DNA of 42,420 nt from Candidatus Omnitrophota bacterium (GTDB lineage Bacteria > Omnitrophota > Gorgyraeia > JABMRN01). A model generated the notes under the pieces. The model saw nothing but the letters and a program-made list of their open reading frames with translations, was not told where the DNA came from and searched no databases. Within the stretch, counting starts at the first letter, position 1, and each line of letters opens with the position of its first letter. The stretch covers positions 27,213 through 69,632 of the forward strand of contig JAQVOV010000002.1 in the NCBI GenBank assembly GCA_028702395.1, written 5' to 3'. This document shows positions 4,137 through 35,899 of this stretch, one piece after another. Both the position numbers and the translations under genes were made by a program.

Positions 4137-5798
4137 CTACATCTTCTTCGGCAACGACACTCCGAGAAGTTTGAGTCCGTTCGCAAGACATATTTTCACA
4201 CAATCAATCAAAAACAACCTTGCTTTTAACAATTCATTGTCATCTGTTATAACCTTATATTTTCCATAAAAGTTATGGAATTTTGATGCAAGTTCGTTTA
4301 AATACGAAATAACAAAAAAAGGTTCCAGTTTTTCGGCACTGGATCTAACAGTTTTAGGAAAAACTCCTATCGTCTTTGCAATAGCTATCTCTTCTTCTTC
4401 TTTCAACAAAGAAAGATCTGCTTTTGACAAATCAATAGCACCTGCCTTTTCATGAATGGACCATATTCTTGCATGTGCATATTGAATATAATAAACAGGA
4501 TTATCTGCGGATTGTTCTTTTGCTTTATCAAGATCAAAATCCAAATGTGTATCAAGATTTCTCATAAGAAAACAAAATTTCGTGACATCCTCACCTACTT
4601 CATCCATAACTTCTTTAAGAGAAATGAATTCTCCTTTTCTCGTAGACATGGAAAGTTCCTGTCCGTTTTTATATATCGTAGCAAGCTGAACTATCAGTAC
4701 TTTAATAGCATCATGATCATGGCCTAAAGCTTGAGCTGCAGCTGTTATCCTTGGAATGTATCCATGATGATCAGGTCCCCATATGTTTATAAGTTTATCA
4801 AACCCTCTTTCATATTTGTTCTTGTGATAAGCTATATCAGGCGCAAAATAAGTGAACTGCCCGTCACTTTTTACAACTACCCTATCTTTTTCATCATTAA
4901 AATCCGTGGATTTAAACCACAAAGCCCCATCCTGCTGATAAATATAGCCCTTTTCTTTAAGCAAAGATAGAACTTTGTCAATATCGGATTTTGTAATGTT
5001 TTTCTGGCTGAACCATGAATCAAAATCCACTTTAAATTGTTTCAGATCCTCTTTTATTATATTCAAAAGAAAATCAGCACCATATTTCCTGAAAAAATCT
5101 CTACTGCTTTGAGGATCCTTTACAAATTTATCGTTATATTCATCTTTTATTCTTAAAGCAATACCTTTAATATACTCTCCCTGATATCCGTCTTCGGGAA
5201 AAACACCATTTTTACCAAAAGCAGCTAAATAATGATAAAGTATAGAATCACCTAAGACATTTATCTGCCTGCCTTCATCATTTATGTAGAATTCCTTTGT
5301 TACATTATTTCCCATGAATTTAAGTATGTTGGCTAGAGCATCTCCAACAGCAGCCTGTCTGCCATGTGCAACAGTCAAAGGCCCGGTTGGATTGGCACTG
5401 ACAAATTCTATCTGTATATTATGGTGGTCTTTGTTTTTTGAACTGCCAAAAGATCCCCCTTCTTTTTCTACTGTCTTTAACACTTCATATGCATATTCTT
5501 TTGATAAAATAAAATTAATGAACCCAGGGTTAACAACATTTACGCTCTCGATAAGACCTGGTATCTTTTTATCCAATAATTCAATAATATCCGTTTTCAG
5601 GGTTTCTGCGATCTGGACAGGATTTTTTTTCAATATTTTTGTCAATTGAAGTGCTATGCTGGAAGAAAGGTCTCCATGGGCAGGATCTCTTGGTGCACCT
5701 ACTATTATATCCGGACAACTTTGATCCCCCATTATTTTCTTAACAGCTTTTTTTATGCCTTGTTCTAATATGATCTCTGATATCTGGGAAAAATCCAT
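4137..5798 (-). CDS. argS: arginine--tRNA ligase
   Basis: 553-aa ORF with the class I motif region SANPTGPLTVAHGR and ArgRS-like N-terminal and anticodon-binding regions. Confidence 0.95.
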   Translation of the reverse strand: MDFSQISEIILEQGIKKAVKKIMGDQSCPDIIVGAPRDPAHGDLSSSIALQLTKILKKNPVQIAETLKTDIIELLDKKIPGLIESVNVVNPGFINFILSKEYAYEVLKTVEKEGGSFGSSKNKDHHNIQIEFVSANPTGPLTVAHGRQAAVGDALANILKFMGNNVTKEFYINDEGRQINVLGDSILYHYLAAFGKNGVFPEDGYQGEYIKGIALRIKDEYNDKFVKDPQSSRDFFRKYGADFLLNIIKEDLKQFKVDFDSWFSQKNITKSDIDKVLSLLKEKGYIYQQDGALWFKSTDFNDEKDRVVVKSDGQFTYFAPDIAYHKNKYERGFDKLINIWGPDHHGYIPRITAAAQALGHDHDAIKVLIVQLATIYKNGQELSMSTRKGEFISLKEVMDEVGEDVTKFCFLMRNLDTHLDFDLDKAKEQSADNPVYYIQYAHARIWSIHEKAGAIDLSKADLSLLKEEEEIAIAKTIGVFPKTVRSSAEKLEPFFVISYLNELASKFHNFYGKYKVITDDNELLKARLFLIDCVKICLANGLKLLGVSLPKKM

Positions 5799-7105: not shown

Positions 7106-8143
7106 CTAGAAATAGCTTTCCATCATATTGACAAGCCCTTTTATAGCTTTAGATAACCAATTTGAATCAATATTTTCCTTTATTTTTTTAGCCTGATATA
7201 AGGCTACTCCCAGTGAACCTGTATGACAAATGGTATCTGCAACTTCGATAGAACAGCCTTCTGCTGAAGCATGCCCCATTTTACAAGATATGCCCAGTTT
7301 AGTATCCATTTTCTCAATTAAATCTTCTTTTAAAGCTCCTCCGCCTGTACATATAACTTCATCTGTATGAATATTCTCAAATTCCTGTTTAATACTATTC
7401 ATGAACATTTCAATAGCTCCATCATTGGCCAGATCTAAACTTCCGAGATCAACACTAGCTATATGAAAAAGGGTTTTTCCTTTAAAAAAAGCTATTCCTG
7501 TTAAATGACTTCCAATATCAACAATAGCCGTTGTCATATCTTTGTTCTTGCCGAATGAGGAAAGGGCTTTTGTTATTGCAATAGGAGCAAAAACTGTACC
7601 ACTAAGGATGTATCCTGAATGTTCAACACATTTATACAGGTTCTTTATTTTGGCAATATCAGCTATTACAACATATAGTTCCATCCCCAGTTTTGTTGCA
7701 TAAAGGCCTTCCGGGTCAACAACTTTATCACCTTCATCAATATAAAAGCTTTGAATTTCTTTCTGGATTATCTGTTTTTCTTCAGGCATTCTTATCATGC
7801 TTGCTATCCTGACACATTTGTCTATGTCACTTGCACTTATTAATCTTGGTCGTTTACCTAATGCAAGCATTCCCTTTGCCTGCATACCTGATATTCCTAG
7901 ACCTTTGACAGAAACAAAAATATTTTTCAATCTTTTTTGAGTTTTTTCTTCTACTCTTTTTAACACATCTCTTATATCAGTTGACGCAACATCAAAATCA
8001 ACGATATTGCCAGAATCAATGCCTTTTGACGGAATGTTCTCTAAAGCTAAAACTTCCAATTGTCCATGTTTACTGACAGATATCATAGCTACACGTATAG
8101 TACTAGAACCTAAATCCAATCCGGTTATAATTTGATCAGCCAT
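7106..8143 (-). CDS. ftsA: cell division protein FtsA, short form
   Basis: Actin-fold motifs DLGSSTIRV, DIGSHLTG and TGGGALKEDL, plus a C-terminal amphipathic tail NWLSKAIKGLVNMMESYF. It occupies the last position of the dcw cluster. Confidence 0.85.
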   Translation of the reverse strand: MADQIITGLDLGSSTIRVAMISVSKHGQLEVLALENIPSKGIDSGNIVDFDVASTDIRDVLKRVEEKTQKRLKNIFVSVKGLGISGMQAKGMLALGKRPRLISASDIDKCVRIASMIRMPEEKQIIQKEIQSFYIDEGDKVVDPEGLYATKLGMELYVVIADIAKIKNLYKCVEHSGYILSGTVFAPIAITKALSSFGKNKDMTTAIVDIGSHLTGIAFFKGKTLFHIASVDLGSLDLANDGAIEMFMNSIKQEFENIHTDEVICTGGGALKEDLIEKMDTKLGISCKMGHASAEGCSIEVADTICHTGSLGVALYQAKKIKENIDSNWLSKAIKGLVNMMESYF

Positions 8144-8366
8144 TTTATCTCCTTTATAGCATCTGCAAGGTAAAAGTAAAAAGGTAAAAGTAAAAAACCT
8201 GTTTTCATTGTGGAGTCTTTTGTTTTTTTTGTAGGGGCGTATTGCAATACGCCCCTACAACGCTCTATTTGAACGTTCCATTAGCTACACGTAATGCGTA
8301 GTTCAATCCAGGACGTTCCACCCTTTTTACTTTTGCCTTTTTCCTTTTTACTTATCTTCCTATTAA
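8144..8366 (-). repeat. composite intercistronic hairpin element (GGTAAAA/GTAAAAA-word arms)
   Basis: Arms at 8167-8197 and 8324-8360. CATTGTGGAG box at 8198-8219. GC hairpin GTAGGGGCGTATTGCAATACGCCCCTAC at 8231-8258. Boxes GAACGTTCCAT (8271-8281) and AGGACGTTCCAC (8310-8321) flank an inner block at 8282-8305. Confidence 0.8.
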
Positions 8367-9173
8367 CTACTTTCTCGGTCCAAGCACAGGATCTTCAAAC
8401 CTAAGATCAATATATTCAAGTCCTTTAACATCAATATTCTTATCTTGTAAGATAAATTGAAGTTTCTTTATTTTTTCAGAAAAATCTTGTTGCCCCATTC
8501 GTATTTCAATAGGTCCATTCAGTTGAACAATGAGATTTTTGGGATTAGAAACATCTATGCTTTTTATGCCATGTTTTTTTATTTCAGGCACGTTATAAAA
8601 TATCGATAATACACTTTTTGCAAGTTCAACTCTATCTGAAGATATTTTTTCTCCAATAGAAGGTTTTGTCCATATTTTAAAACCTGTTATAAGCGGTAGA
8701 TCTGACATAGTTGCTTGATCATATACAAGAACAGTTGAATCATTATCAATAGCATATTGCCCAAAAGCATTTATTGATGCAAGCGGCACACGTTGATCAA
8801 CCATAAGTTCTATCCTATCAGGTAAAACTCTTTTAACAACAATATTCTTTATTTGAGGATAATTCTTGTTAAGCTGATATTCTAACCACTTAATATTCAC
8901 TTTGAAAATGTTCTCTCCTTTAATATTCTCAGTTTCTTTGATCGTCTTCAAAAAGCTGATATCCCTGCTTTGTCCTGTATTGTTTACAATAACAATACTT
9001 TTGACCCGAAAATACTTTATTCTCATAATATAATTTCTAAGGGCAAATCCCAAAACAAGTAGGATCAATAAAACAAGCAAAAAAGGGAAACATTTCTTGA
9101 ACACTGTTTTGATCACTTCTATTATTTTATCTTTTTTTTCTGAAAACACGTTACGTTTTCTTTTCCTAGCCAT
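8367..9173 (-). CDS. ftsQ: cell division protein FtsQ
   Basis: 268 aa with a basic N-terminus, one TM helix and a POTRA-like region. It sits between ddl and ftsA. Confidence 0.8.
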   Translation of the reverse strand: MARKRKRNVFSEKKDKIIEVIKTVFKKCFPFLLVLLILLVLGFALRNYIMRIKYFRVKSIVIVNNTGQSRDISFLKTIKETENIKGENIFKVNIKWLEYQLNKNYPQIKNIVVKRVLPDRIELMVDQRVPLASINAFGQYAIDNDSTVLVYDQATMSDLPLITGFKIWTKPSIGEKISSDRVELAKSVLSIFYNVPEIKKHGIKSIDVSNPKNLIVQLNGPIEIRMGQQDFSEKIKKLQFILQDKNIDVKGLEYIDLRFEDPVLGPRK

Positions 9174-10260: not shown

Positions 10261-11135
10261 ACTATTATTATCTCCATCTCAAGTTCTATATTTTTATTTT
10301 TTTTCACTACTTCCTTTATCTTTTTTATAAGAAACAATACATCTTCAAAACTTGCATTGTTCTGATTCACAATGAAGTTTGCGTGTTTACTTGAAACTTC
10401 AGCCCCTCCTTTAGTAAATCCCTTCAACCCACATTCGTCTATTATCTTTCCTGCAGAGATCCCCTGAAGATCAGGGTTTTTAAATACACACCCTGCAGAA
10501 TTCTTATCTATCGGCTGAATATCTTTTTTGTTTTCCAGTATCTTTTTATACTGACACATTACATTTTCAGGAAGATCTTTTTCCAATTCAAATTCAACCT
10601 GCAAAATTATATTATTCTTAAGCCCTGAACTTCTATATACAGGGTTCAACTGCTTTTTTGTAACTTCAAACAGATTTCCTTCCATATCCATTAGAATGAC
10701 TTTCTTGATAAATGAGCATATCCACTTATCGGAGCCTGCATTCATATAAACAGCTCCACCAACAGTAGCAGGTATCCCTGCAAAAATTTCCAAACCTTTC
10801 AATCCTTTTGCTGCAGAAAAAAGTATCGTTTGTGAAAGGCTCATCCCTGCTCCAACAGTTAGAACATTATCTTTTTCAAAGATATTAGAAAAATCTTTTC
10901 CTGTCAATTTGATCACAACTAGATCATGCTCATCACTTTTAAAAAGAATGTTACTGCCTGCTCCCAGAACAAAGACCTCTTTTTGTTCTTCTTTACATAT
11001 TTTAATGACGGTTTTAAGGTCTTCGATATCTTCACATAATACAAGGTTCTTTACTTTTCCTCCTATCTTAAAAGTAGTGTAAGGCCCTATTTCTATGTTA
11101 GAAAAAGCTTTTCCTTTAATGTTATCGAAGTTCAT
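10257..11135 (-). CDS. murB: UDP-N-acetylenolpyruvoylglucosamine reductase
   Basis: 292 aa with an FAD-binding region (GAGSNIL) and MurB C-terminal domain. It overlaps ddl by 4 nt. Confidence 0.95.
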   Translation of the reverse strand: MNFDNIKGKAFSNIEIGPYTTFKIGGKVKNLVLCEDIEDLKTVIKICKEEQKEVFVLGAGSNILFKSDEHDLVVIKLTGKDFSNIFEKDNVLTVGAGMSLSQTILFSAAKGLKGLEIFAGIPATVGGAVYMNAGSDKWICSFIKKVILMDMEGNLFEVTKKQLNPVYRSSGLKNNIILQVEFELEKDLPENVMCQYKKILENKKDIQPIDKNSAGCVFKNPDLQGISAGKIIDECGLKGFTKGGAEVSSKHANFIVNQNNASFEDVLFLIKKIKEVVKKNKNIELEMEIIIV

Positions 11136-12516
11136 ATTTTTGATCCAGTTTCCTTACAAGCTCAGGAATTATTTCATTCACATCACCGGCCCCTAAAATA
11201 AGAACAATATCTCCAACGTTGATCTCTTTGAACAAAGTCATGACAATATCTGCCTTAGGAACAATGTAGGCCTCTTTTATTCCTTTTTCTTTGACCCCAA
11301 AACATATATTGCAAAGGCCTATCCCATCTAGCGGATCTTCGCTTGCAGCATATATATCCGTAAGTATTAATTTATCAACCCCTGAAAAACATTCACAAAA
11401 CTCTTGTTCAAGATGCATTGTTCTGGAAAACCTGTGCGGCTGAAAAACCACTATTATACGGTTCTTTTTCAACAATTTTGCAACACTTATTATTTTTGAT
11501 ATTTCAGTAGGATGATGTGCATAGTCTTCTACTATTACAACCTCATTTGCGCTATATTTGACCTCAAATCTACGTTTAACATTTTTGAAATCCTTGATTA
11601 TTCCCGCAATATCCGAAAATGACATCCCCATCTTCTTTGCAACAGCAATTGAAGCAAGTGCATTATACACATTGTGTTCACCTAAAACCCCTAGAGAGCA
11701 TTTCCCTAATTCCTGTCCGTTAAAAAAGCAGGAAAACCGCATCCCGACATCTTCTGGTTTAACATTAATGGCAAAGATATCTGCTTTAGAAGAAAAGCCG
11801 AAACTTATCTTTTCACCTTTATACGATCGGCTAAGGTCACGTAATATCTCATCATCATAATTATAGAACAAAACCCCATCTTCTTTTGTGTTCTTTATAA
11901 AACTGTTAAAAGCATCCGTTAAATTATCCATTGTTTTATAATATTCCATGTGATCTTTTTCAATATTAGTTATAACAGAATATTTAACTGCCATATCCCT
12001 TATGAATCCGTCACTCTCATCCATTTCAGAAACAATGATCTCACTTCTGCCTTTTTTGGCATTTGATCCAAGAAAATCCATTTCACCTCCAACTAAGATC
12101 GTAGGATCAAACCCGCCCTTTTCCAGTAAAAATGATATCATAGCAGAAGTTGTTGTTTTTCCATGTGTTCCTGCTATGGAAATAGATACTTTCCTTGAAT
12201 CTATGATACGTTTAAGGAATTCCGATCTGAAAATAATAGGGATATTTCTTTCATGTGCTTCTTTTATATCTGAATTATTATTGCGGATATTAAAGGCTCT
12301 TACAACAAGATCAGGTTCATTAATGATACCTTTATGACCAATATTTATTTTAGCCCCTTTTTTTATTAACCTTTGAATAAGAGGATTATCTTTAATGTCA
12401 GACCCTGTTATCATTATTCCACTTTCTATTAGAAGCTCTGCGATCCCACTCATACCAATACCGCCTATACCTACCATATGTATATGTTTTTCTTTAATAT
12501 CAAAAGTATCAGCCAT
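11122..12516 (-). CDS. murC: UDP-N-acetylmuramate--L-alanine ligase
   Basis: 464 aa with N-terminal GIGGIGMSGIAE and the Mur ligase P-loop GTHGKTTT. Confidence 0.95.
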   Translation of the reverse strand: MADTFDIKEKHIHMVGIGGIGMSGIAELLIESGIMITGSDIKDNPLIQRLIKKGAKINIGHKGIINEPDLVVRAFNIRNNNSDIKEAHERNIPIIFRSEFLKRIIDSRKVSISIAGTHGKTTTSAMISFLLEKGGFDPTILVGGEMDFLGSNAKKGRSEIIVSEMDESDGFIRDMAVKYSVITNIEKDHMEYYKTMDNLTDAFNSFIKNTKEDGVLFYNYDDEILRDLSRSYKGEKISFGFSSKADIFAINVKPEDVGMRFSCFFNGQELGKCSLGVLGEHNVYNALASIAVAKKMGMSFSDIAGIIKDFKNVKRRFEVKYSANEVVIVEDYAHHPTEISKIISVAKLLKKNRIIVVFQPHRFSRTMHLEQEFCECFSGVDKLILTDIYAASEDPLDGIGLCNICFGVKEKGIKEAYIVPKADIVMTLFKEINVGDIVLILGAGDVNEIIPELVRKLDQKYELR

Positions 12517-12518: not shown

Positions 12519-13610
12519 TTACCTCTTCAAAATGTCTATAATAACTTCACTTAGTTTTTGTGAAGCATTCAGTTCAACTATATTTCTGGCATTTTCAATA
12601 AACTCTTCCCTTATATGTCTATTTTTGACCCACTCACTTACAATATTCTTTATTTGCCCCTGAGACATATTCTTTTCTTCAAGAAGAACTGCTGCCTTTT
12701 TATCAGCAAAGAACTTAGCATTCAAAATTTGAGAATTCTTTTCATTAGGATACGGAATAAGGATCATTGGTATCCCATAAAAAGCTAACTCAAAAACAGC
12801 AGATGCCCCAGCACGTGAAATAGCAATATCCACTATTTTATATATATTATTGATATTTTCAACGTAATTATAAACTTTTGCAATTATATTATGTTGTAAA
12901 TACGTATTTTGGACATATTCAACATCTTTATCACCTGCAATATGGATGATCTCTAATTTTGCTTTTATACTGTCCTCTATTAAACTCAGATCATTAACAA
13001 CGATCTTATTCATAGAGGTAGCTCCCTGACTTCCGCCAATAACAAGTAATTTAACAGTTTTTTGTTCATTTGACAACACTTTTAGTAGATCTTCTTTTTT
13101 ATCAGAGAGTATCTCAGGTCTGATAGGATTTCCTGTTATACATATCTTTTCTTTTAGTGCGCTATCTATCTTTGACGGGAAACTCAAAGCTATTTTATCA
13201 ACATATTTGGATAATATCTGATTAGCTCTGCCTAATACAATATTTTGTTCATGAATAACTGTTTTTATGTGAAACACCTTTGCTAAAAAAACAACAGCCC
13301 CTGTCACATATCCGCCGAAGCCAACAACAACATTTGGTTTTTCCCTGATCAAAATAAAAAAAGAAATTAAAACATCTGATACAAATTTAAACATAAAAGA
13401 AAACATTTTCAATGAAAACTTATATGGCATAGGATTCGCTGAAAGATAATATTTTTTATAGTTAGTATCTTTCAAAAGTTTTTTATCGATCCTTCTTTTA
13501 CTTGCAACAAAAACGACTTCCCAACCTTTTTTTATCATTGTTTGGGCTGTTGAAACTGCAGGGAAAATATGTCCACCGCTTCCACCTGCAACTATTAATA
13601 CTTTGTTCAT
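12519..13610 (-). CDS. murG: UDP-N-acetylglucosamine--N-acetylmuramyl-(pentapeptide) pyrophosphoryl-undecaprenol GlcNAc transferase
   Basis: 363 aa with the N-terminal GGSGGHIFPA motif and GT28 fold pattern. Confidence 0.95.
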   Translation of the reverse strand: MNKVLIVAGGSGGHIFPAVSTAQTMIKKGWEVVFVASKRRIDKKLLKDTNYKKYYLSANPMPYKFSLKMFSFMFKFVSDVLISFFILIREKPNVVVGFGGYVTGAVVFLAKVFHIKTVIHEQNIVLGRANQILSKYVDKIALSFPSKIDSALKEKICITGNPIRPEILSDKKEDLLKVLSNEQKTVKLLVIGGSQGATSMNKIVVNDLSLIEDSIKAKLEIIHIAGDKDVEYVQNTYLQHNIIAKVYNYVENINNIYKIVDIAISRAGASAVFELAFYGIPMILIPYPNEKNSQILNAKFFADKKAAVLLEEKNMSQGQIKNIVSEWVKNRHIREEFIENARNIVELNASQKLSEVIIDILKR

Positions 13611-13763
13611 GATTCTCCTAAAAAATATACTTTGTTATTAGTTATTTGTTATTAGTGTGAGTGGTGGATCGTCCTAAATACAGTTTTCAAACAAACCCTA
13701 TGAAGAGCCTTCTTTCACACACACTAATAACACACACTAATAACTAACTCCAATTAACTCGCT
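13611..13763 (+). repeat. intercistronic hairpin element (TTGTTAT/TAGTGTG-word arms), opposite orientation to the others
   Basis: Arms at 13631-13663 and 13726-13750. Here the box GTGGATCGTCCTAAATA (13664-13680) reads on the plus strand. Confidence 0.75.
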
Positions 13764-14843
13764 CTAATCTCTGGTTGCGTTCAGCAGCAACCCGATCGCT
13801 ATCATATGCACGATCAAAGAAGTTCCCCCATAACTGACAAATGGCAAAGGAAGTCCTTTTGTAGGGAACAGTCCTACTGAAACACCAACATTGACTATGA
13901 CCTCAAAAGCTATCATAAAAACAATTCCGAAAACAAGCATTTTCCTGAACGTATCATTTATTTTAAAAGCAGCTCTTGTTCCCTGCCAAACAAGTGCAAA
14001 AAATAATATGATCAAAGCAGTAACACCTATAAACCCCAATTCTTCTCCAATAATTGACAAAATAAAATCTGTATGTGACGCTGGTAAAAAGAAAAGTTTT
14101 TGTTTTGATTGTCCTAATCCTACTCCCAAAAGACCGCCTGAACCAAGTGCAATATATGATTGTACTATTTGAAAACCTGTGTCTCTTTCGTCTAACCACG
14201 GATTAATAAAAGCCATTATCCTTTTACGTCTGTATGGAACAGAAAAAATAAGATAATAGATGAAAGGTACAGTTGAAAGGATCGTAACAGCAATATGTTT
14301 AAAATTCGCACCCCCTATAAAGAGCATTAAGAACATCATAAACCCTATAGTCATAGTAGTTCCAAGGTCAGGTTCCAAAAGAACAAGACCCATGATGGTA
14401 CCGCAAACTACAAGAACAGGCAGATATCCTCTGAAAAGATTTATCATGCGGGATTCATTTTTATCTACAAAGTACGCAAGATATATAAGAACCGACAGTT
14501 TAGCCAGTTCTGATGGTTGAACATTGAAAAAAATAAAACTTATCCACCTGCTTGCACCACCTGCAGTGTGTCCTATTCCTGGAATAAGAGCGCATACCAG
14601 TAACCCTATTGTTGTTAAAATAATAAGTTTAGCATGTTTTTTTAAAATATCACAATCAATGGACATAAAAAACAATGCCGCTATCACGCCTATGATCAGA
14701 TTTAAAAGATGCCGTTTAAAATAATAAAGACTATCCCCGAATAACTGCGAAGCATAAATAGCGCTTGAACTGTATACCATTACAAGCCCGAACATAAGCA
14801 GGATAAAAACCGTTGAAACGATCGATATGCGTAAACTTGACAT
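13764..14843 (-). CDS. ftsW: SEDS-family peptidoglycan polymerase FtsW
   Basis: 359-aa polytopic membrane protein of the FtsW/RodA family, in the dcw position for ftsW. Confidence 0.9.
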   Translation of the reverse strand: MSSLRISIVSTVFILLMFGLVMVYSSSAIYASQLFGDSLYYFKRHLLNLIIGVIAALFFMSIDCDILKKHAKLIILTTIGLLVCALIPGIGHTAGGASRWISFIFFNVQPSELAKLSVLIYLAYFVDKNESRMINLFRGYLPVLVVCGTIMGLVLLEPDLGTTMTIGFMMFLMLFIGGANFKHIAVTILSTVPFIYYLIFSVPYRRKRIMAFINPWLDERDTGFQIVQSYIALGSGGLLGVGLGQSKQKLFFLPASHTDFILSIIGEELGFIGVTALIILFFALVWQGTRAAFKINDTFRKMLVFGIVFMIAFEVIVNVGVSVGLFPTKGLPLPFVSYGGTSLIVHMIAIGLLLNATRD

Positions 14844-15085
14844 ATTATTTCCTTTATATGACTTTTAAGTAAAAAGTAAAAAGTTAAAAGTTAAAAGTTA
14901 AAAATCTGTTATCATTGTAGAATCTTATGTTAGGCTCATTTTTAGTGTCTGTGTCTGTTTCTGTGTCTGGAAAGGAACATCCTAAATATAGTTTTTTTAC
15001 ATCTTTTAGAAGGATCCACCACTGACACAAACACAAACACTGACACTAATTACTTTTACCTTTTTCCTTTTTCCTTAATCTTCTA
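14844..15085 (-). repeat. nested composite element: GTGTCT-word element inside a GTAAAAA-word element
   Basis: Outer arms at 14865-14904 and 15050-15076. CATTGTAGAATCTT box at 14905-14926. Inner arms at 14942-14970 and 15020-15049 enclose GGAACATCCTAAATATAG...AGAAGGATCCAC. Confidence 0.8.
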
Positions 15086-16444
15086 TTAACTGAATCTCTC
15101 TTTAACGATCCGCTGAAACACCTCGCCTCTATGTTTATAACTTGTGAACATGTCAAAGCTTGAACACATAGGAGACAAAAGTATCACTTGATCCTTTTGG
15201 GCAATTTTGATAGCCCTATCTATCGCATCTTCCATTGACCCTGCCTTTTCAACAGGAACATTTTTTTTATCCATTACATCAAAAATTTTATCTGCAGCTT
15301 CTCCTATAAGAATTATTTTGTAGACCTTTTCTTTTATTTCAGGTAAAACACTTAAATAATCTCCTCCTTTATCTCTGCCGCCTGCGATCAAAATGATCTT
15401 CTTATCCAAAGACTGTATAGCTCTTTTTGTTGCATCAACATTAGTTGCTTTTGAATCATCCATGAATACGATCCCGTCCTTTTCATAAAATTTTTCGAGT
15501 CTATGGGCTAATGGTTGAAAATCTTCAATAGCACTGATAACAGCTTCAATATTAACTCCGGCAGATATAGCCATAAAAGAAGAGGCGCAAATATTTTCCA
15601 GATTATATTTCCCTTTTAATTTTGTTTTTGGAATATCAAAAAGTTTTTTTACATCATCATCTATCTTTGAATACATGACATTGTTCAATACAAACGCGCC
15701 TTCAACTTCTTCTGTTACACTATAAAAGAACTTTTTTCCTCTGCCTGGTATTATAAGGTCTTTTGAAGCTTTATCATCATGATTTATCAACGCAATATCA
15801 GATTCGATCTGATTTTCAAAAAGTCTGGCCTTCGTATCAGCATAATCATCAAACGAAGTATAACGCTCTAAATGATCATCCGTAACATTCAATATACATC
15901 CTATATTAACTTTAAGATCCACTATTTTTTCCAATTGAAAAGAGCTTATCTCCAATATAACAAATGTATCATCATCAATATTATCTATCTCTCCCGAAAA
16001 AGAGTTTCCTATATTACCGCAAACAATATACTTTTTTGAATCTTTTTCAAACATCTTTCCTAATAAGGTAACTACTGTCGATTTACCGTTAGTACCTGTC
16101 ACAGCAATTATTTTTCCTTTACAAAAATTATATGCAAATTCTATTTCACTTATTATAGGAATGCTGTTGGCGAAAGCATATTTAACAGGAAGACTGTTGT
16201 TATCCACCCCAGGACTAAGTACGATTATATCTGTGCCTGAAAGAAACTCTTCTGTATGCTGGCCGAATTCAACTTCAATAAAATTTTCCTTTAAAACATC
16301 AATATCCTGTGTGATCTTTTCTTCTGAACAACTATCAGTAACAGCCGCTATTGCGCCATGTTTGTGTGCCAGAATAGCAGCATCAAACCCGCTTCTGCCT
16401 AAACCTACAACAACTATTCGTTTGTTTCGTATATCCATCTTCAC
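15086..16444 (-). CDS. murD: UDP-N-acetylmuramoylalanine--D-glutamate ligase
   Basis: 452 aa with N-terminal GLGRSG and the Mur ligase P-loop GTNGKST. Confidence 0.95.
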   Translation of the reverse strand: MKMDIRNKRIVVVGLGRSGFDAAILAHKHGAIAAVTDSCSEEKITQDIDVLKENFIEVEFGQHTEEFLSGTDIIVLSPGVDNNSLPVKYAFANSIPIISEIEFAYNFCKGKIIAVTGTNGKSTVVTLLGKMFEKDSKKYIVCGNIGNSFSGEIDNIDDDTFVILEISSFQLEKIVDLKVNIGCILNVTDDHLERYTSFDDYADTKARLFENQIESDIALINHDDKASKDLIIPGRGKKFFYSVTEEVEGAFVLNNVMYSKIDDDVKKLFDIPKTKLKGKYNLENICASSFMAISAGVNIEAVISAIEDFQPLAHRLEKFYEKDGIVFMDDSKATNVDATKRAIQSLDKKIILIAGGRDKGGDYLSVLPEIKEKVYKIILIGEAADKIFDVMDKKNVPVEKAGSMEDAIDRAIKIAQKDQVILLSPMCSSFDMFTSYKHRGEVFQRIVKERFS

Positions 16445-16648
16445 CTCTAATGGGATTCAAGGTAAAAGTAAAAAATCTGTTACCATTGTGGAATCTTCTT
16501 GGATTTCTTTGTAGGGGCGTATTGCAATACGCCCCTACAAAAACCTCTTTCAGAACTTTCCACATTTTTTGTTCTTAACTAAATTTAGGACGCTCCATCC
16601 TTTTACCTTTTACCTTTTTACTTTTTCCTTATAAGTCTTATTACTCGC
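16445..16648 (-). repeat. composite intercistronic hairpin element (GGTAAAA-word arms)
   Basis: Arms at 16459-16475 and 16599-16628. Box TCTGTTACCATTGTGGAATCTT at 16476-16497. A GC hairpin at 16511-16538 is identical to 8231-8258. Further boxes at 16551-16565 and 16587-16598. Confidence 0.8.
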
Positions 16649-17740
16649 TTAACGCATCTTTAAGCTTGCTAATGACAGTAACACTAAAATTATTGCAATT
16701 ATCCAAAACCTTATTATAACCTTTGATTCATGCCATCCCTGAAGCTGGAAATGATGATGTATTGGCGCCATTCTAAAAACTCTTTTTCCTTTACGCAGTT
16801 TACAAGACGCAACTTGAATGATCACTGAGAGAGCTTCAGCAACAAATATACCACCAACAAAAAACAGTAAAAGTTCTTTTTTTATCAATACACTGATTAT
16901 TCCTATTACACCGCCTAAAGATAATGAACCTGTATCACCCATAAAAACACTTGCAGGATGACAATTGAACCATAAAAACCCAAGACCAGCCCCAACTATT
17001 GAAGAGCACAAGACAGTAAGTTCCCCGCTACCAAACAAATAATATACATTTAAATACTCGCTCATGTTAATATTTCCTGTAATATAGCTTATTATTGCAA
17101 AAGCCAATGCTACAATTGTCACACATCCGATAGCAAGTCCATCAAGTCCATCAGTAAGATTCACAGCATTGCTTGATCCTACGATCACAAGAACCACAAA
17201 TAGAATGTAAAAAATTCCCAAATTTAAAACAGCATTTTTAAAAAAAGGGAAATATAATGTCGAAGACATCTGCGGATCATTATAAAGATAAAGCCCTATC
17301 AAAAAGGCAATAATGACCTGCCCTAAAAACTTTGCACGACTTTTTAATCCTTTATTATGCTGATTTGATATTTTTAAAAAATCATCAATGAACCCTACTA
17401 ATCCTAGCCACAATATGCCTACAAGACCTATAATGATGAATTTATTATCCAGTCTTGCCCATATAAGTGTAGAGCCCACAACTGCAAGGAGTATCAATAT
17501 CCCTCCCATTGTAGGCGTACCTTCTTTATGAACATGTAACTTATGAAGTTCCTGAACATGATCTTTTCTAATAATTTGACCGAAATTCATTTTTGCAAGC
17601 CATCTTATAATAATGGGTCCCAAAATAACACTTATTAGAAAAGCTGTAAAACTAGCCATAGCTGCGCGGAAAGTTATATATTTAAAAAGATTGAACCCGA
17701 ACCAAACATCTTTTAATGGGTAAAGAAAATAATATAGCAT
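16649..17740 (-). CDS. mraY: phospho-N-acetylmuramoyl-pentapeptide-transferase
   Basis: 363-aa polytopic protein with MraY motifs (NAVNLTDGLDGLA, HHHFQL). Confidence 0.95.
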   Translation of the reverse strand: MLYYFLYPLKDVWFGFNLFKYITFRAAMASFTAFLISVILGPIIIRWLAKMNFGQIIRKDHVQELHKLHVHKEGTPTMGGILILLAVVGSTLIWARLDNKFIIIGLVGILWLGLVGFIDDFLKISNQHNKGLKSRAKFLGQVIIAFLIGLYLYNDPQMSSTLYFPFFKNAVLNLGIFYILFVVLVIVGSSNAVNLTDGLDGLAIGCVTIVALAFAIISYITGNINMSEYLNVYYLFGSGELTVLCSSIVGAGLGFLWFNCHPASVFMGDTGSLSLGGVIGIISVLIKKELLLFFVGGIFVAEALSVIIQVASCKLRKGKRVFRMAPIHHHFQLQGWHESKVIIRFWIIAIILVLLSLASLKMR

Positions 17741-17869
17741 TAGACTCCTTTATAGCAACTTTAGCTTTCAGCTTTCAGCAAAAAGATCGGTTTAACAAAA
17801 AGTTTCTTTAAAAAACTCATTTAGGATCTTCCTCTGGCTGAGAGCTGACAGCTGAAGGCTGAAGGCTGC
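17741..17869 (-). repeat. intercistronic hairpin element (AGCTTTC/GCTGAAG-word arms) overlapping the murF 3' end
   Basis: Arm at 17760-17779 faces arm at 17835-17869. Box AGGATCTTCCTC at 17823-17834. The right arm and the box lie inside the murF reading frame. Confidence 0.75.
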
Positions 17870-19223
17870 TTTTCATTAACTCTATCTTTCGCACAACCTC
17901 TTCCATCTTCGCTTTACGTGAACCTTTGACAAGTATTATATCATTAGGTTCAAGTATATTAAACAATTGTTTATACAGACTTTCTTTTTCATTAAAAACA
18001 AAAACATGTGCTTTTTCCATACCATTTTTTATTGCACCATTTGCTATATACGCGGCTTCTTTTCCGACAGTGATAAGTTTGTCTATTTTTGCAGATGCTA
18101 TGTTCTTCCCGATCTGAATATGCAGTTTTTTGGACTGTTCTCCGAGTTCTAACATATCTGAAACAATTATGATTTTTTTATTTTTCCCTATTTTATCCAA
18201 GGATTCTATTGCCTTTTGCATTGATAAAGGATTAGAATTGTAAGTATCATCAATAACTGTATATCTGCCTTTTCTACTTACAAAGAATCTGTTCTTGTTT
18301 TCTGCTCTATATTTTTTCAAACTCAGCGCCATTTTTTTTAAAGGTATATCAAAGATCTGTCCAACAGTTACTGCACATAATACATTATAAAGGTTATGTT
18401 TCCCAATTAAGCTCACTGTAAATTTAACACTACCAACATAAAACGAAAGAGCCCCTTTTTTATCATAATATTTGTCATTATGACTTTTCTTGTCTATGTT
18501 AAACATGACTTTTTTACAGTGTACCTTTATTTTGTTCAAAAGCTGATCATCTCCGTTCAACACAGCTATTCCATTATCAGGCAAAGAATTGATAAGTTCT
18601 TTTTTTTCTTTTAAAACATTAAGGCGTGTCTTAAATCCTTTTAAATGTGCATCTCCAACATTTGTTATCACTCCTACGTCAGGCTGTACTATCTGTGACA
18701 ATCTAGAAATTTCACCGGGTGAATTTGTCCCAAGCTCAACAACACCTACTTCATGTGTTTTCTTTAACTGAAATAATGTTAAAGGAACACCGATAAAATT
18801 ATTCTTTGTTCCTTCTGTTTTAAGAACCTTATAACTTTTAGATAAAAGAAAAGCTATTATTTCTTTTGTGCTTGTCTTTCCTGCAGAACCTGTTATTGCG
18901 ACTATTGGGATATCCATTTTACATCTGTAAAAACAAGCAATATCACCCATATTTTTGATCGTATCTTTTACGAAAAAAACGGGAATATGTTTTTCTACTG
19001 CAACGGCATCTTTTGTATTTTTTGAAGCAATAATGCAAACTGCTCCTTTTTTATATGCTTCGAGTACAAAATCATTACCGTTGAATCTTTCCCCTTTGAT
19101 GGCAATGTAAAGATCGCCCTTTTTCACCTTGCGGGAATCAATGCAAACACCTTTGATCTTTGTTCGATCATCTTTATATTTACGGTTCTTTAGAACCTGG
19201 GCTATTTCTGAAACAGTGAACAT
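17817..19223 (-). CDS. murF: UDP-N-acetylmuramoyl-tripeptide--D-alanyl-D-alanine ligase
   Basis: 468 aa with the Mur ligase P-loop GSAGKTSTKE. The last ~17 aa (SSLQPSAVSSQPEEDPK) are encoded by the repeat element. Confidence 0.9.
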   Translation of the reverse strand: MFTVSEIAQVLKNRKYKDDRTKIKGVCIDSRKVKKGDLYIAIKGERFNGNDFVLEAYKKGAVCIIASKNTKDAVAVEKHIPVFFVKDTIKNMGDIACFYRCKMDIPIVAITGSAGKTSTKEIIAFLLSKSYKVLKTEGTKNNFIGVPLTLFQLKKTHEVGVVELGTNSPGEISRLSQIVQPDVGVITNVGDAHLKGFKTRLNVLKEKKELINSLPDNGIAVLNGDDQLLNKIKVHCKKVMFNIDKKSHNDKYYDKKGALSFYVGSVKFTVSLIGKHNLYNVLCAVTVGQIFDIPLKKMALSLKKYRAENKNRFFVSRKGRYTVIDDTYNSNPLSMQKAIESLDKIGKNKKIIIVSDMLELGEQSKKLHIQIGKNIASAKIDKLITVGKEAAYIANGAIKNGMEKAHVFVFNEKESLYKQLFNILEPNDIILVKGSRKAKMEEVVRKIELMKSSLQPSAVSSQPEEDPK

Positions 19224-19436
19224 TGGACTCCTTTATTTAGTGACTAGTAACTAGAAACTAGTTACTAGAAATAATTGCTTTAAAGCTATTTCGTTTATGA
19301 AGTTTCTTACATAATCTCTCTAAAATTGTTGCTAATTAATCAATTAAATTTTTATTCTCTATCTTAGGATATCTTAAGATCAATTTATCCTAGTCACTAG
19401 TCACGAATCCCTATCACCTGATACCTAGTCACGAAC
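19224..19436. repeat. composite intercistronic hairpin element (TAGTNAC-word arms, ATCTTAAGATCAATTTATC core)
   Basis: Arms at 19237-19268 and 19390-19436. Core motif at 19369-19389. The right arm overlaps the last codons of murE. Confidence 0.75.
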
Positions 19437-20843
19437 TCCTATTAACTCCTTAACAACCTTCACATCATCAAACTTCATCTTCTTGTTTCCTATTATCTGA
19501 TATTTCTCATGCCCTTTTCCGGCAATAATAACGATACTATCCTTTTGTGCGATGTTCAAAGCTATTTTGATAGCTTCACGTCTGTCTTTTTCTATAATGA
19601 CTTTACTAATATATTTTTTTATGCCTTTTACAATATCATTGATAATACAAGCAGGATCTTCTGTTCTTGGATTATCACTTGTGACAAGGACTTTATCTGA
19701 TAACATGCATGCAACTTCACCCATTTTGGGTCTTTTAGTCTTATCTCTGTCTCCTCCGCATCCGAAAACTGTAATAATTTGTTTTGGTCTTATTTCCTGT
19801 AAGGTCCGTAAAACATTTAAAAGTGCGTCAGCAGTATGTGCATAATCGACAAACACTTTAAACTTTTTATTGATCTTTACAGGCTGCAGACGACCATCCG
19901 GTGGTTTAGCATTACCAATACTTTTTATAACATCTTTGATATTAATACCTAAAAAAACACCCGCAGAAACAGCTGCTAATATATTTGAAATATTATGTCT
20001 GCCGATAAGGGATGTTTTTACCTTGTACTTTTTATCAAAAACATTGAGATCAAAAGTTGAACCTGCCAAAGTCATTTCAATGTTTTCTGCATAAACATCC
20101 GTTTTTTTACCTACACTGAAGCCTATGCATCTGTTCTTAAGCTCTTTTTTAAGTATTTTTCCTTTTGGGTCATCAATATTGACAATAGCAATTCCTTTTT
20201 TTTTAAGGTTAACAAATATTTTTTTCTTTGCTTTGAAATAACTATTTATATTTTTGTGATAATCCATATGTTCTGGGGTAAGATTGGTAAAGACTGCCAC
20301 GTCGTAAAAAACATGTCCTGCTCTTTCCTGTTCCAACGCATGAGAAGAAACTTCCATTATGGAGTACTTTATCTTTTCTCTGACAATATCCGACAACAAT
20401 CTGTTGAGTGTAAAAGCATCCGGAGTAGTCCTATCTGCATCAACTGTCTTTTCACCTATCTTATAATAGATCGTTCCTATCAGACCTGTCCTTTTACCTG
20501 AATCCTTTAATATCTTATCCAGCAAAAACGAAACAGTTGTCTTTCCATTAGTACCTGTTATACCAATATTAAAAAGTTTTTTTGAGGGTTCATCGAAATA
20601 CTCTGAACAATTTCTCGAATACTCTTTATGAGAATTTTGTACGATCTTTATTTTTTTAGAAGAAACATGTACCTTTTTGGAAAGTTTCTTCCATATATCC
20701 TTTTGGACTATACAAAACTTTGCACCTTTATCTATTGCAGACTCAATATGCTGATGTCCATCGGAAACAGCTCCTTTTAAGGCAATAAAGATATCCCCTT
20801 TTTGAACTTTTCTTGAATCTGATGTGAATTTTGGTCGTTCCAT
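19425..20843 (-). CDS. murE: UDP-N-acetylmuramoyl-L-alanyl-D-glutamate--2,6-diaminopimelate ligase
   Basis: 472 aa with the P-loop GTNGKTT and a MurE-type DNPR motif (SDNPRTEDP). Confidence 0.9.
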   Translation of the reverse strand: MERPKFTSDSRKVQKGDIFIALKGAVSDGHQHIESAIDKGAKFCIVQKDIWKKLSKKVHVSSKKIKIVQNSHKEYSRNCSEYFDEPSKKLFNIGITGTNGKTTVSFLLDKILKDSGKRTGLIGTIYYKIGEKTVDADRTTPDAFTLNRLLSDIVREKIKYSIMEVSSHALEQERAGHVFYDVAVFTNLTPEHMDYHKNINSYFKAKKKIFVNLKKKGIAIVNIDDPKGKILKKELKNRCIGFSVGKKTDVYAENIEMTLAGSTFDLNVFDKKYKVKTSLIGRHNISNILAAVSAGVFLGINIKDVIKSIGNAKPPDGRLQPVKINKKFKVFVDYAHTADALLNVLRTLQEIRPKQIITVFGCGGDRDKTKRPKMGEVACMLSDKVLVTSDNPRTEDPACIINDIVKGIKKYISKVIIEKDRREAIKIALNIAQKDSIVIIAGKGHEKYQIIGNKKMKFDDVKVVKELIGVRD

Positions 20844-20949: not shown

Positions 20950-22626
20950 TTAACTCTCCTCCGGCACCTCTAGATACCTTAATGACTTCTGCATAACTTC
21001 CCTGAATACAGGTGCAGCAACACTTCCTCCGAAATAATCGCCCTTAGGTTCATTTACACTCACAACAACAACAAGTTCTGGGTCTTTATAAGGTGCAAAT
21101 CCCATAAATGAAGCAATGTATTTGCCTTCTGCATACCTGCCGCCTATGACCTTTTGTGCTGTTCCTGTTTTACCGCAAGCATAATATCCATTCAATATTG
21201 CTTTTTTCCCTGTACCGCTTTGTACAGCTCCTTTTAATATTTCTTTAACAGTATCTGCACTTTTTCCGCTTATAACCCTTTTTTTTATTTTTGGCTTGAA
21301 TTTTTTTATCACGTTACCATTTTCATCCCTTATCTCTTTAACAATATACGGCTGCATCAGCAATCCTCCATTAGCAACTACGCTCAAAGCATCCGCCAAT
21401 TGTAAAGTTGTACATGAAACACCCTGTCCCATTGGGATAGTTGTCATATCAGATGGGGTCCACGTTCTCACGTTCCTTAAAATTCCATTTTCCTCTCCAG
21501 GGAGATCTATACCTGTTGACTGACCAATTCCAAAATTCAATAGATAATTGTAGAAATCATCTTCTCCTATTTTAGCTGTTGCTTTAACTGTTCCTATATT
21601 GCTGGATTTCTGTATAACTTGAGAAAAAGACAGGTTACCATAACCATGATAGTCATGAAGAACCCTTTTTCCGACGCTATACTGTCCATTCTCACAAAAG
21701 AACATATCATCAGGTTTGACCTTTCCAGTATCAATATCAGCACACGCACTTAACACTTTAAAAACACTGCCAGGTTCATAAACATCTGTTATACACCTAT
21801 TTTTGAGATCCTCTTTCTCTGCTTTTGAATATTGATTATTCTCATAACTGGGATAAGAACACATTGCATATATCTCTCCCGTAATAGGGGACATTACTAT
21901 TATCATTGCAGATTCCGGTTTTCTTTTTTTCACAAGCTCTCGCATTTCGGTTTCTACTGTATGCTGTATTACTTCATCAATAGTAAGTATAATATCATAC
22001 CCTTTTTTGGCAGGTAAGAACTCCTCGTATGATGATATTTTATTTTGCCTGGCATCCCTGAAAAAGCTTTTCCATCCGTATTTACCCCTTAAAAAATTTT
22101 CATAATAAAGTTCTATACCTTCGATCCCTTTGTTATCAATATCTGTAAAACCTATCACATGACATAAGAGATCACCTTTAGGATAACTTCTTTTTGTTTC
22201 CTGTAAAAGGTAAAGCCCGTTGATTTTTGATATTTTTATTCTGGTGGTTTCTTCAGACGAAAGTCCGCGTTTTATCCAGATGAACGCCTTATCTTTATTG
22301 ATACGTTCCCTCACAATGTTTTCATCAACATCTATCAGTTCACATATAGACCTTATAACTTCTTCTTTGTTGGTTATTTCACGAGGAACAGCATAAAGGC
22401 TTTCTATAGGCGTGTCAACTGCAAAAGCCCTGTTATTTCTATCAAAAATACCACCTCTTTCAGGTGCAAGTTCTATTTTAACTCTATGCTGTATATCTGC
22501 TTTTTTCTTGAAAAACTCATAGTTTATCACCTGCCTATTATACACTCTTAATATAAGACATATGAATAATATGCAAAACAAAAAAAGGACTATTAATTGT
22601 CTTTTACGGTTTATGTTTCTATACAC
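20950..22626 (-). CDS. ftsI: peptidoglycan D,D-transpeptidase (class B PBP)
   Basis: 558 aa with an N-terminal TM helix and the transpeptidase motifs SVFK, SSN and KTGTA. Confidence 0.9.
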   Translation of the reverse strand: MYRNINRKRQLIVLFLFCILFICLILRVYNRQVINYEFFKKKADIQHRVKIELAPERGGIFDRNNRAFAVDTPIESLYAVPREITNKEEVIRSICELIDVDENIVRERINKDKAFIWIKRGLSSEETTRIKISKINGLYLLQETKRSYPKGDLLCHVIGFTDIDNKGIEGIELYYENFLRGKYGWKSFFRDARQNKISSYEEFLPAKKGYDIILTIDEVIQHTVETEMRELVKKRKPESAMIIVMSPITGEIYAMCSYPSYENNQYSKAEKEDLKNRCITDVYEPGSVFKVLSACADIDTGKVKPDDMFFCENGQYSVGKRVLHDYHGYGNLSFSQVIQKSSNIGTVKATAKIGEDDFYNYLLNFGIGQSTGIDLPGEENGILRNVRTWTPSDMTTIPMGQGVSCTTLQLADALSVVANGGLLMQPYIVKEIRDENGNVIKKFKPKIKKRVISGKSADTVKEILKGAVQSGTGKKAILNGYYACGKTGTAQKVIGGRYAEGKYIASFMGFAPYKDPELVVVVSVNEPKGDYFGGSVAAPVFREVMQKSLRYLEVPEES

Positions 22627-23132: not shown

Positions 23133-23198
23133 AGGACCATCCACAAGCTGAGCCCTGCCTGCCGGCAGGCAGGGCTAATAGCTGAAAGCTGATGGCTA
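23133..23198 (-). repeat. hairpin-element arm (AGCTGAA words) carrying an inserted GC-rich palindrome
   Basis: Box AGGACCATCCAC at 23133-23144. The arm AAGCTGAG...CTAATAGCTGAAAGCTGATGGCTA is interrupted by CCCTGCCTGCCGGCAGGCAGGG (23153-23174). The partner arm near 23070-23095 is degenerate. Confidence 0.6.
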
Positions 23199-24110
23199 AT
23201 TTTTTTCTATAACCCTCAATTTCGCACTTCTAGCTCTAGGGTTAGCTGCTGTTTCCTCTTCAGTTGGTATAATAGGTTTTTTTGTCAATATTTTAAAATC
23301 TTCCTTGTTTTTAGCCAGTTCCCTAAAGAATTGTTTGATTATACGGTCTTCCAAAGAATGAAATGATATCACACACAATCTGGCTTTTGGCGCAAGGAAC
23401 GTTACAACTTTTTCTAGTGCCTGTTTTATTGATCCCAACTCATTATTTACTTCTATCCTTATAGCCTGAAAAGTCTTTGTAGCAGGATGTATACGTGACC
23501 TTTTACCGCCCCTGCTAAGCGCTTTTAAGACTATTCCGGCAAGTTCATATGTAGTCTCTATCTTTTTGGTCTTTCTTGCGTTAACAATATATCTTGCGAT
23601 CTTCCTTGATGCCCTTTCCTCTCCAAACTGATAAATTACATCTGCTAATTGTTTTTCAGGATATCTATTGACAACATCAAAAGCCGTAATTCTTTGTGAA
23701 AGATCCATCCGCATATCAAGCGGTCCGTTTTCTTTAATACTAAATCCCCTTTGAGGGGTATCTATCTGAAATGATGATATTCCAAGATCAAATAATGCAC
23801 CATTCAGCTTGTCTATGCCATTGTTCTTTAATATTACTTCAAGTTCATCAAAATTTGCATGCTCAATTTTATAGTTTTTTTCTGGATATTCAGCAGATAA
23901 CCTTTTTTTTGCGATATTTATCGCCTGGCCATCTCTGTCTATTCCTATTAAAAAACCTTGAGGCAAAATTCTTTCAAGGAGCCGTTTTGAGTGTCCTGCA
24001 CAGCCAACCGTGCCATCAAGTATCTTATCCCCATTAATTGGGTTAAGATACTTGATGACCTCTTCAGATAACACTGAAATATGCAACTCACTATTTGTAT
24101 TCAACTGCAA
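23196..24110 (-). CDS. rsmH: 16S rRNA (cytosine1402-N4)-methyltransferase
   Basis: 304 aa with HISVLSEEV at the N-terminus, a SAM-binding DGTVGCAGHS motif and DLGISS. Confidence 0.95.
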   Translation of the reverse strand: MQLNTNSELHISVLSEEVIKYLNPINGDKILDGTVGCAGHSKRLLERILPQGFLIGIDRDGQAINIAKKRLSAEYPEKNYKIEHANFDELEVILKNNGIDKLNGALFDLGISSFQIDTPQRGFSIKENGPLDMRMDLSQRITAFDVVNRYPEKQLADVIYQFGEERASRKIARYIVNARKTKKIETTYELAGIVLKALSRGGKRSRIHPATKTFQAIRIEVNNELGSIKQALEKVVTFLAPKARLCVISFHSLEDRIIKQFFRELAKNKEDFKILTKKPIIPTEEETAANPRARSAKLRVIEKN

Positions 24111-24905: not shown

Positions 24906-24912
24906 TTTATCC

Positions 24913-24939: not shown

Positions 24940-24947
24940 ATATTACA

Positions 24948-27978: not shown

Positions 27979-27996
27979 TTTTTCTCCTTATACTAT

Positions 27997-28094: not shown

Positions 28095-28099
28095 CCCTA

Positions 28100-35891: not shown

Positions 35892-35899
35892 TTAATAAT

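Follow-up and report, generated by a model that had tools for sequence, protein, structure and literature searches.

Introduction

The dcw operon is essential and normally tightly packed. In the small-genome lineage of Omnitrophota described here, almost every free junction between its genes has been colonised by repeats, and the spacer between murD and ftsW holds one repeat inside another. The question raised by this locus is whether the nesting records elements that land in existing copies, arms grown from a local template, or an ancient structure that became fixed.

The stretch of DNA analysed, hereafter the window, is 42,420 nt long, has a G+C content of 33%, and carries almost all of its genes on the - strand. 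Searches against NCBIfam and Pfam identified a complete dcw cluster, with murB and ddl placed between murC and ftsQ:

24465-24956, mraZ
23196-24110, mraW
20950-22626, PBP
19425-20843, murE
17817-19223, murF
16649-17740, mraY
15086-16444, - strand, murD
13764-14843, - strand, ftsW
12519-13610, murG
11122-12516, murC
8367-9173, ftsQ
7106-8143, ftsA

The top named homologues of MurD and FtsW all belong to Candidatus Omnitrophota, and the metagenome runs containing the locus originate from landfill and groundwater, with no RNA run among those that carry it. Elsewhere in the window, a Fic/DUF4172 gene (35790-37003) is the sole long gene on the + strand, and its upstream promoter (TTGACA-17-TATAAT) sits among repeated GCGGAGA / TCTCCGC half-sites that are operator-like in appearance. 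The gene at 39496-40755 encodes a predicted pPIWI-associating nuclease domain (PF18165, E = 1e-31) and is adjoined by two ORFs on the same strand (40758-42319), one of which was scanned and gave no Pfam match; together they may represent a prokaryotic Argonaute-type defence locus.

Two concentric inverted repeats between murD and ftsW

The murD-ftsW spacer spans 242 nt (14844-15085) and contains, within 14865-15078, two concentric inverted repeats, the arms of which are tandem arrays of 6- to 7-nt words. An inverted-repeat search delimited an outer repeat of 34 nt (14865-14898 / 15045-15078, 82% complementary) and an inner repeat of 45 nt (14942-14986 / 15005-15049, 73% complementary). TRF detected period-7 arrays in the outer arms (14867-14903, AAGTTAA x5.3; 15053-15076, CTTTTTC x3.4) and period-6 arrays in the inner arms (14945-14969, GTGTCT x4.2; 15020-15049, x5.0). 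The parts are as follows, with 5' and 3' arms named in gene orientation:

15050-15078, - strand, outer 5' arm, (GGAAAAA)(GGAAAAA)(GGTAAAA)(GTAAT), of the GTAAAAR word family
15020-15049, - strand, inner 5' arm, TAGTGTCAG TGTTTG TGTTTG TGTCAG TGG, period-6 words
14971-15019, - strand, inner core, box A and its inverted copy box A', a GTGG-footed hairpin with a 16-nt A-rich loop
about 15005-15020, - strand, box A of the inner core, GGTGGATCCTTCTAAA
14973-14986, + strand, box A' of the inner core, AGGAACATCCTAAA
14942-14970, - strand, inner 3' arm, CCAGACACAGAAACAGACACAGACACTAA
14927-14941, - strand, linker from the inner arm to box B
14900-14926, - strand, box B of the outer family, sense AAGATTCTACAATGATAACAGATTTTT, conserved throughout the six aligned copies of this family (two genomes)
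14865-14899, - strand, outer 3' arm, (AACTTTT)x3 (TACTTTT)x2
14849-14860, - strand, ftsW ribosome-binding motif, sense CATATAAAGGAA, a variant of GCTATAAAGGAG ("box R")

The minimum-energy fold of the spacer contains the two helices at once. The sense (- strand) RNA reached -61.8 kcal/mol (z = -5.4, with none of 200 shuffles as good), the antisense (+ strand) RNA -49.8 kcal/mol (z = -3.2), and the DNA -33.9 kcal/mol (z = -4.6); the inner core alone folds at -9.4 kcal/mol on the - strand. The inverted-repeat search, TRF, and the folds compared with shuffles therefore all confirm what the initial annotation had read at this spacer, namely, one word-arm element inside another, and its coordinates for the nested arms and for the CATTGTAGAATCTT box (14913-14926) were correct. 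It had also assigned the inner words to the family of an element at 3919-4137, and we found that the TTAGTGTC...GACACTAA arms of that element (3916-3941 / 4110-4135) match the inner arms in 24 of 26 positions as read by eye, around a different, 168-nt core that includes box C (3916-4135 in total). Of the short inner arm pairs described elsewhere, that at 1944-1978 lies in a 41-nt segment between two box A copies (1943-1983) that does fold (-13.2 kcal/mol) but is better seen as five heptamers in direct tandem, the words of which are self-complementary, and that at 8282-8305 corresponds to a hairpin (8281-8310) that is present but weak (6 bp, -4.9 / -6.4 kcal/mol). The copy at 16.5 kb had been described as free of such a pair, and 16563-16587 is indeed unstructured (0.0 kcal/mol).

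A common plan across the dcw operon

Every spacer was read, also in gene orientation, and nine dcw junctions and several other spacers share one plan, in which a word array follows the upstream stop codon, conserved boxes come next, and a complementary array precedes the following gene. At least eight word families recur (GTAAAAR, GCGTTRT, CAGCTRT, CTAGTNA, GTGTCTG, ATCGRAA, GTTGAACTA, and CATGACC), together with three boxes:

box A, sense GGTGGAACGTCCTRAA, with a GTRG foot
box B, sense AAGATTCYACAATGRTAACAGATTTTT, containing CYAC (reverse complement of the GTRG foot of box A)
box C, + strand TATCTTTAAATCAATTWAT

Some junction elements also hold perfect GTAG...CTAC palindromes. Among the 52 arrays detected by TRF in the 42-kb window, 20 have a period of 7 and five more a period of 14, nearly all of them intergenic, and these length-variable tandem 7-nt arrays between genes are of the STRR type. 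In 13 of the 16 regions tested, one strand or both folded with z <= -3. Half-elements with non-complementary arms also exist, at the murE-murF junction of the relative L001 and at 27979-28099 in the window, and they count against the explanation preferred below.

The motif (T)GCTATAAAGGAG lies 5-7 nt upstream of the start codon, after the 3' arm of most elements and with any word family, and is absent upstream of element-free genes, such as fhs; the repeats may carry or standardise a ribosome-binding site. Box A is on the G-rich - strand in 11 of its 13 intergenic copies, a bias that is confounded because nearly all genes, and the GC skew, are on the same strand; it fits strand-specific single-strand transposition or an RNA-level constraint, which are not separable here. 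Boxes A, B, and C and the ribosome-binding motif were absent from 778 kb of loci from other phyla. A scan of genome contigs with MurD peptides found no relative, box B had no match in a scan of metagenome contigs, and a box A 19-mer matched only the relative L002 and, by chance, two sites in unrelated DNA.

Three further observations concern the word arrays. The last 17 codons and the stop codon of murF (SSLQPSAVSSQPEEDPK*, 17817-17880) are encoded by a CAGCYKT word arm, the partner of which is at 17759-17779, and by a box A-like motif, which indicates that a repeat became a protein tail. A GC-rich palindrome, GCCCTGCCTGCCGGCAGGCAGGGC (23152-23175), lies inside a CAGCTRT word array beside box A in the mraW-ftsL spacer; in contigs of runs X1 and X4, it is found behind an arm of the outer type. 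The window's longest word array by a wide margin, a 262-nt run of about 37 heptamers (CATGACC/CATTACC, 35458-35719), separates the Fic gene from a small zinc-ribbon-like ORF on the - strand.

Two dispersed families and a preferred slot

Six copies of the outer family, from the window and the relative L001, were aligned. In gene orientation, they consist of (GRTAAAA)n, box A, a variable slot, box B, (TTTTAYC)n, GCTATAAAGGAG, and the start codon; arms, boxes, and ribosome-binding motif are shared, the copies differ only in the slot, and five of the six slots hold differing inserts:

L001, mraY-murD: slot empty
L001, ftsW-murG: REP palindrome
L001, pbp-murE: AT-rich filler
window, mraY-murD, 16445-16648, - strand: second box A and a 28-nt GTAG REP (16511-16538), giving arm, box A, box A, REP, box B, arm
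window, ftsQ-ftsA, 8144-8366, - strand: mini-hairpin, second box A, and REP (8231-8258), giving arm, box A, mini-hairpin, box A, REP, box B, arm, box R
window, murD-ftsW: the inner element

The inner family consists of a TTAGTGTC-type arm, box A, a loop, an inverted box A, and an arm. A solo module of this type, which aligns with the inner module, lies in the ftsW-murG spacer (13625-13755, + strand) in the opposite orientation, with box A on the + strand. Both families are dispersed at non-orthologous sites and in both orientations in this genome and a relative.

A slot filled by differing inserts fits a preference for landing in existing copies, as the initial annotation had proposed. Because the nested pair contains no box A belonging to the outer copy, a simple cut-in is not the sole route by which the composite could have formed, and replacement or recombination at box A fits equally well; the inner module may have replaced the outer box A or recombined there, with no simple cut-in required. 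Recombination between elements does occur, as indicated by two clear chimeras in L001, at ftsW-murG, where two arm dialects are joined, and at ftsQ-ftsA. Templated growth, which had been offered as the other route to nesting, is not favoured: arms pair across copies as well as they pair with their own partners, which indicates that they are family-level sequence and gives no sign of templating copy by copy.

Orthologous junctions in relatives

Counting the window, the murD-ftsW junction was found in five different states:

L004-L007 (MurD 53-59% identity): dcw genes abut or overlap, with murD and ftsW sharing 1-4 nt
L001 (MurD 75%, FtsW 86%): 54-nt repeat-free spacer
L123 (FtsW 93%): hairpin with GCGTTAT arms
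L002 (MurD 87%): GTTGNACTA words and box A
window: nested pair

The alternative to mobility, an ancient fixed structure nested identically in all relatives, is contradicted by these states. Among the junctions occupied in both the window and L001, six of seven differ in family or are mosaic, and only mraY-murD is the same throughout. The differing occupants point to lineage-specific gains and rapid turnover, and the proposal of mobility with landing in existing copies stands as far as turnover, dispersal, and a preferred slot are concerned, while the enzyme, the exact insertion event, and any function are inferred.

In L123 (250-345), the first words of the GCGTTAT-arm hairpin encode the last codons of MurD and its stop codon (GNVMR*). 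The calls for PBP and murE in L001 are broken up into several ORFs (596-2641), which probably reflects frameshift errors in that assembly and not real pseudogenes.

Assembly support and multiplicity

Short Logan contigs of three metagenome runs, drawn from two studies, together cover 14820-15110 with 0-2 differences (pieces at 14881-14949, 14920-15042, and 15013-15072 among them), and an independent contig, L003, is identical across another repeat-rich spacer. A false nesting produced by mis-joined repeats is very improbable, since, although short-read contigs break at every arm and the repeats are highly multicopy in the samples, overlapping contigs from three runs cover the nested structure and L003 agrees elsewhere.

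Logan word depth in run X1 was 8.7 in the flanking genes, 375-460 in the outer arm, about 170-200 in box B, 80-105 in the inner arms, and 19-28 in the inner core. The linker between box B and the inner arm had a depth of 56.6 versus 8.7 in the unique flanks, about 6-fold, which indicates that this junction is itself repeated. Consistent with this, a 1767-nt contig of the same run from another locus ends with 14881-14949 (2 differences) and carries the same box B / inner-arm junction; a second locus of this kind implies that the composite spread as a unit or that the same site was hit twice. Strain-level presence or absence of the inner module was not seen, the nested form being present in all strains of at least 96% identity in runs X1, X2, and X4. 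An empty and filled allele pair with exact boundaries was not found among the Logan contigs, which are too fragmented at the arms, and apparent skips in these contigs were rejected as empty alleles because they come from other loci sharing arm words.

REP palindromes and the link to RAYT

The slot of three outer copies contains a perfect 28-nt palindrome, GTAGGGGCGTATTGCAATACGCCCCTAC (window 8231-8258 and 16511-16538; L001 8106-8133), which we also found exactly, including at loci L008-L119, in more than 112 stretches of species-representative genomes in many phyla. Among the matches listed, these include Cyanobacteria, Planctomycetota, Chloroflexota, Atribacterota, Zixibacteria, Nitrospirota, CPR groups, and Omnitrophota, with unrelated flanks; heterocystous cyanobacteria also carry it. 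In five other phyla, the palindrome lies in frame inside RAYT subclass 2.4-type genes (L008, L018, L064, L076, and L088), and a REP in frame inside the RAYT gene is a hallmark of RAYT subclass 2.4 with "double-foot" REPs (Quentin et al., 2018, PMC6006769). We found no quotation of the sequence in the searchable literature. The palindrome shows that a RAYT-type system has acted in this lineage, which is no proof that the word-arm modules use that enzyme. The full REP pattern, a GT[AG]G foot at the 5' end followed directly by an imperfect hairpin of about 20-40 nt, or a double foot (GTAG...CTAC), is present in the palindromes at 8231-8258, 16511-16538, 27432-27503, 29503-29574, and 37131-37158. 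Among the word-arm modules, GTGG stands at the start of box A (GTAG in one L001 copy) and C[CT]AC occurs within box B; feet of only 4 nt are weak evidence and could be due to chance.

A palindrome within a palindrome was found at 27432-27503 and at 29503-29574, and indicates that insertion of one hairpin into another happens in this lineage. At these sites, the GTAGGGGCAATTCATGAATTGCCCCTAC palindrome carries a second one, CCCTATACC...GGTATAGGG, at its centre, and the two copies are inverted, 2 kb apart, and flank a trehalose-synthase-like gene. A solo GTAGGGGCAATTCATGAATTGCCCCTAC 28-mer is located at 37131-37158 and also occurs in the Zixibacteria locus L018.

Neither the 42-kb window nor L001-L007 encodes a transposase or RAYT detectable by Pfam, NCBIfam, or an HUH...Y regular expression. 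Target-site duplications were not above chance at ten elements, the best flanking direct repeats being 0-4 nt with a null fraction of at least 0.22, which argues against a DDE-type MITE; the elements have the inverted arms of MITEs without the flanking duplication and, like REPs, are multicopy and extragenic and have no such duplication. An apparent clustering of heptamer arrays beside GTAGGGGCGTATTGCAATACGCCCCTAC in other phyla, about a two-fold excess, was discarded: intergenic location is a confounder, and the arrays on either side of the palindrome do not complement each other.

Discussion

In the present study, we favour, with a probability of roughly 0.55, the reading that the murD-ftsW spacer is a stack of two non-autonomous hairpin repeats of the REP/REPIN or MITE kind, formed by insertion into, or recombination with, existing copies. 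The repeats constitute a lineage-specific modular system comparable to REP/BIME/REPIN elements and MITEs, and their mobilisation by a RAYT-type HUH enzyme is plausible, the tandem-word arms, which are undescribed for REPs, counting against this kinship. Judged by comparison of sequences, a swarm of modular and fast-changing repeats appears to have pushed apart genes that overlap in relatives.

According to the mechanism we propose, modules would move in DNA form, probably as single-stranded hairpins on which an HUH/Y1 (RAYT-type) enzyme acts in trans, the REP of the RAYT subclass 2.4 type being co-resident in the same composites as the word-arm modules. They would land in, or recombine with, existing copies, where an insertion should be harmless, and arm length would then drift by slipped-strand mispairing of the words. 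Copies would survive only at junctions, helped by the standard Shine-Dalgarno motif after the 3' end, and in the operon mRNA, each element would form a long imperfect hairpin just 5' of the next ribosome-binding site. These hairpins may affect processing or coupling; nothing requires such a role.

Growth in place is the strongest competitor to this stacking of dispersed repeats, although we consider it unlikely. A seed would expand by slippage into a heptamer array, the complementary arm would arise or be corrected by intra-strand template switching, and nesting would reflect successive local rounds. The arms are indeed tandem arrays in which period 7 dominates (20/52 in the window), the words are more uniform within an arm than between partners (e.g., GG versus GT in the outer pair), and metagenome contigs differ in length by single words (6 nt lost at 15025, 7 nt gained at 16463). 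Unpaired half-arrays and the 37-copy CATGACC array exist, and intergenic heptamers are over-represented and length-variable in Xanthomonas and Nostoc (PMC4692102). However, boxes A, B, and C, which are not repetitive, and complete arm-box-arm units turn up again at unrelated junctions, in either orientation and in two genomes; arms pair equally across and within copies with no signal of templating, and the box B / inner-arm junction is found again at a second locus. Slippage probably acts on top of dispersal.

Somewhat less probable again is that the spacers are selected RNA structures, serving as intercistronic processing or stability sites or as translational insulators, of which the hairpin is kept and the sequence is free to change. 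The sense fold of the spacer, 12 kcal/mol better than the antisense fold, the low z values in 13 of 16 regions, the 3' arm ending right before the conserved GCTATAAAGGAG motif, and the sense orientation of box A in 11 of 13 copies are in line with this idea, as are three lineages with a murD-ftsW hairpin, each of a different sequence. However, this junction is free of hairpins in L001, and the more distant relatives lack spacers altogether, which indicates that the operon works without hairpins; moreover, the same module occurs in both orientations, and sense and antisense folds are about equal across spacers. Rfam 15 also speaks against an RNA role: nothing in the window passed the gathering threshold, and 13550-16700 gave no hit even at E <= 1. 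Terminator-like sites numbered four in 13400-17900 against 2.2 +/- 1.4 expected, none spanning element arms, and promoter-like sites were not enriched. An excess of G-U pairs on the sense strand was set aside as a sign of RNA selection because the result was mixed and confounded by strand composition, and GGA-containing words were rejected as CsrA-type binding motifs because most word families have no GGA.

More speculatively, and as a long shot, the tandem-word arms might not be inherited at all: the same HUH/RAYT-2.4-type machinery that is behind the spread of the 28-nt GTAG palindrome across phyla could produce or reshape them, for instance through reiterative copying where a hairpin is nicked. 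The STRR arrays of heterocystous cyanobacteria and the Omnitrophota elements would then share one mechanism, and the elements would be self-inserting spacers that carry a ribosome-binding site and pry apart overlapping genes.

The dcw junctions, occupants of which were replaced within the divergence of close relatives, form a natural series from overlap to empty spacer, single module, and nested modules, in which the spread and nesting of tiny non-autonomous repeats can be studied. It can also reveal how such repeats donate stop codons, protein tails, and ribosome-binding sites. A practical effect is that such repeats fragment short-read assemblies of these genomes.

Comparison with known repeat systems

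MITEs and the BOX, RUP, and Correia/NEMIS elements are non-autonomous repeats of less than 300 nt with terminal inverted repeats, modular boxes, and variable copy numbers, which occur in operon spacers and can be co-transcribed. The elements described here are likewise non-autonomous modular repeats with inverted arms in operon spacers, but have no target-site duplication and no matching insertion sequence in the DNA examined, and their arms differ between copies that share boxes.

The heptamer repeats of cyanobacteria known as STRRs were reportedly described by Mazel in 1990, and the small dispersed repeats (SDRs) of Nostoc are said to have been described by Elhai in 2008. SDRs are tiny mobile hairpins that occur within heptamer arrays and MITEs and are not known to duplicate their target, features in which our elements may resemble them. 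STRRs resemble the elements in being intergenic tandem heptamers that are often capable of forming stem-loops and vary between close relatives, and the 28-nt REP occurs in heterocystous cyanobacteria as well as here; STRRs and the heptamers of Nostoc are mentioned in PMC4692102 (see also PMC2858038). The phylum, words, and boxes differ from those of STRRs and SDRs, and the arms here form complementary pairs around boxes at operon junctions. The GGGAATC heptamers of Xanthomonas are intergenic, mostly between co-directional genes and near the upstream ORF, form 70-75 convergent inverted pairs per genome as potential stem-loops, and are not conserved at the same genes between two species (PMC4692102). 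They differ from our elements in consisting of one G-rich word with G-quadruplex potential, and conserved internal boxes and nesting are unreported there.

REP/BIME/REPIN elements are mobilised by RAYT (TnpA-REP) HUH transposases (Bertels and Rainey, 2011, PMC3116915; Di Nocera et al., 2013, PMC3733652; PMC6006769). As in the present elements, they are short, imperfect, multicopy intergenic palindromes that form mosaics with other motifs, have no target-site duplication, and can provide stop codons or sit within the ends of genes; three composites here contain true GTAG...CTAC double-foot REPs, and GTRG / CYAC occur in boxes A and B. The differences are that the long arms are tandem arrays of 6- to 7-nt words from at least eight families and that the conserved boxes are located inside the arms and not at their base.

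In the searchable literature, we found no description of such repeats in Omnitrophota. The present system differs from its closest analogues in its phylum, in joining tandem-word arms that vary to internal boxes that are conserved, in nearly saturating the junctions of an essential operon, and in supplying stop codons, protein tails, and a standard ribosome-binding motif. Taken together, the system ties heptamer simple-sequence repeats, REP/RAYT palindromes, and MITE-like nesting, which are usually treated apart, to one another and extends them to the Omnitrophota.
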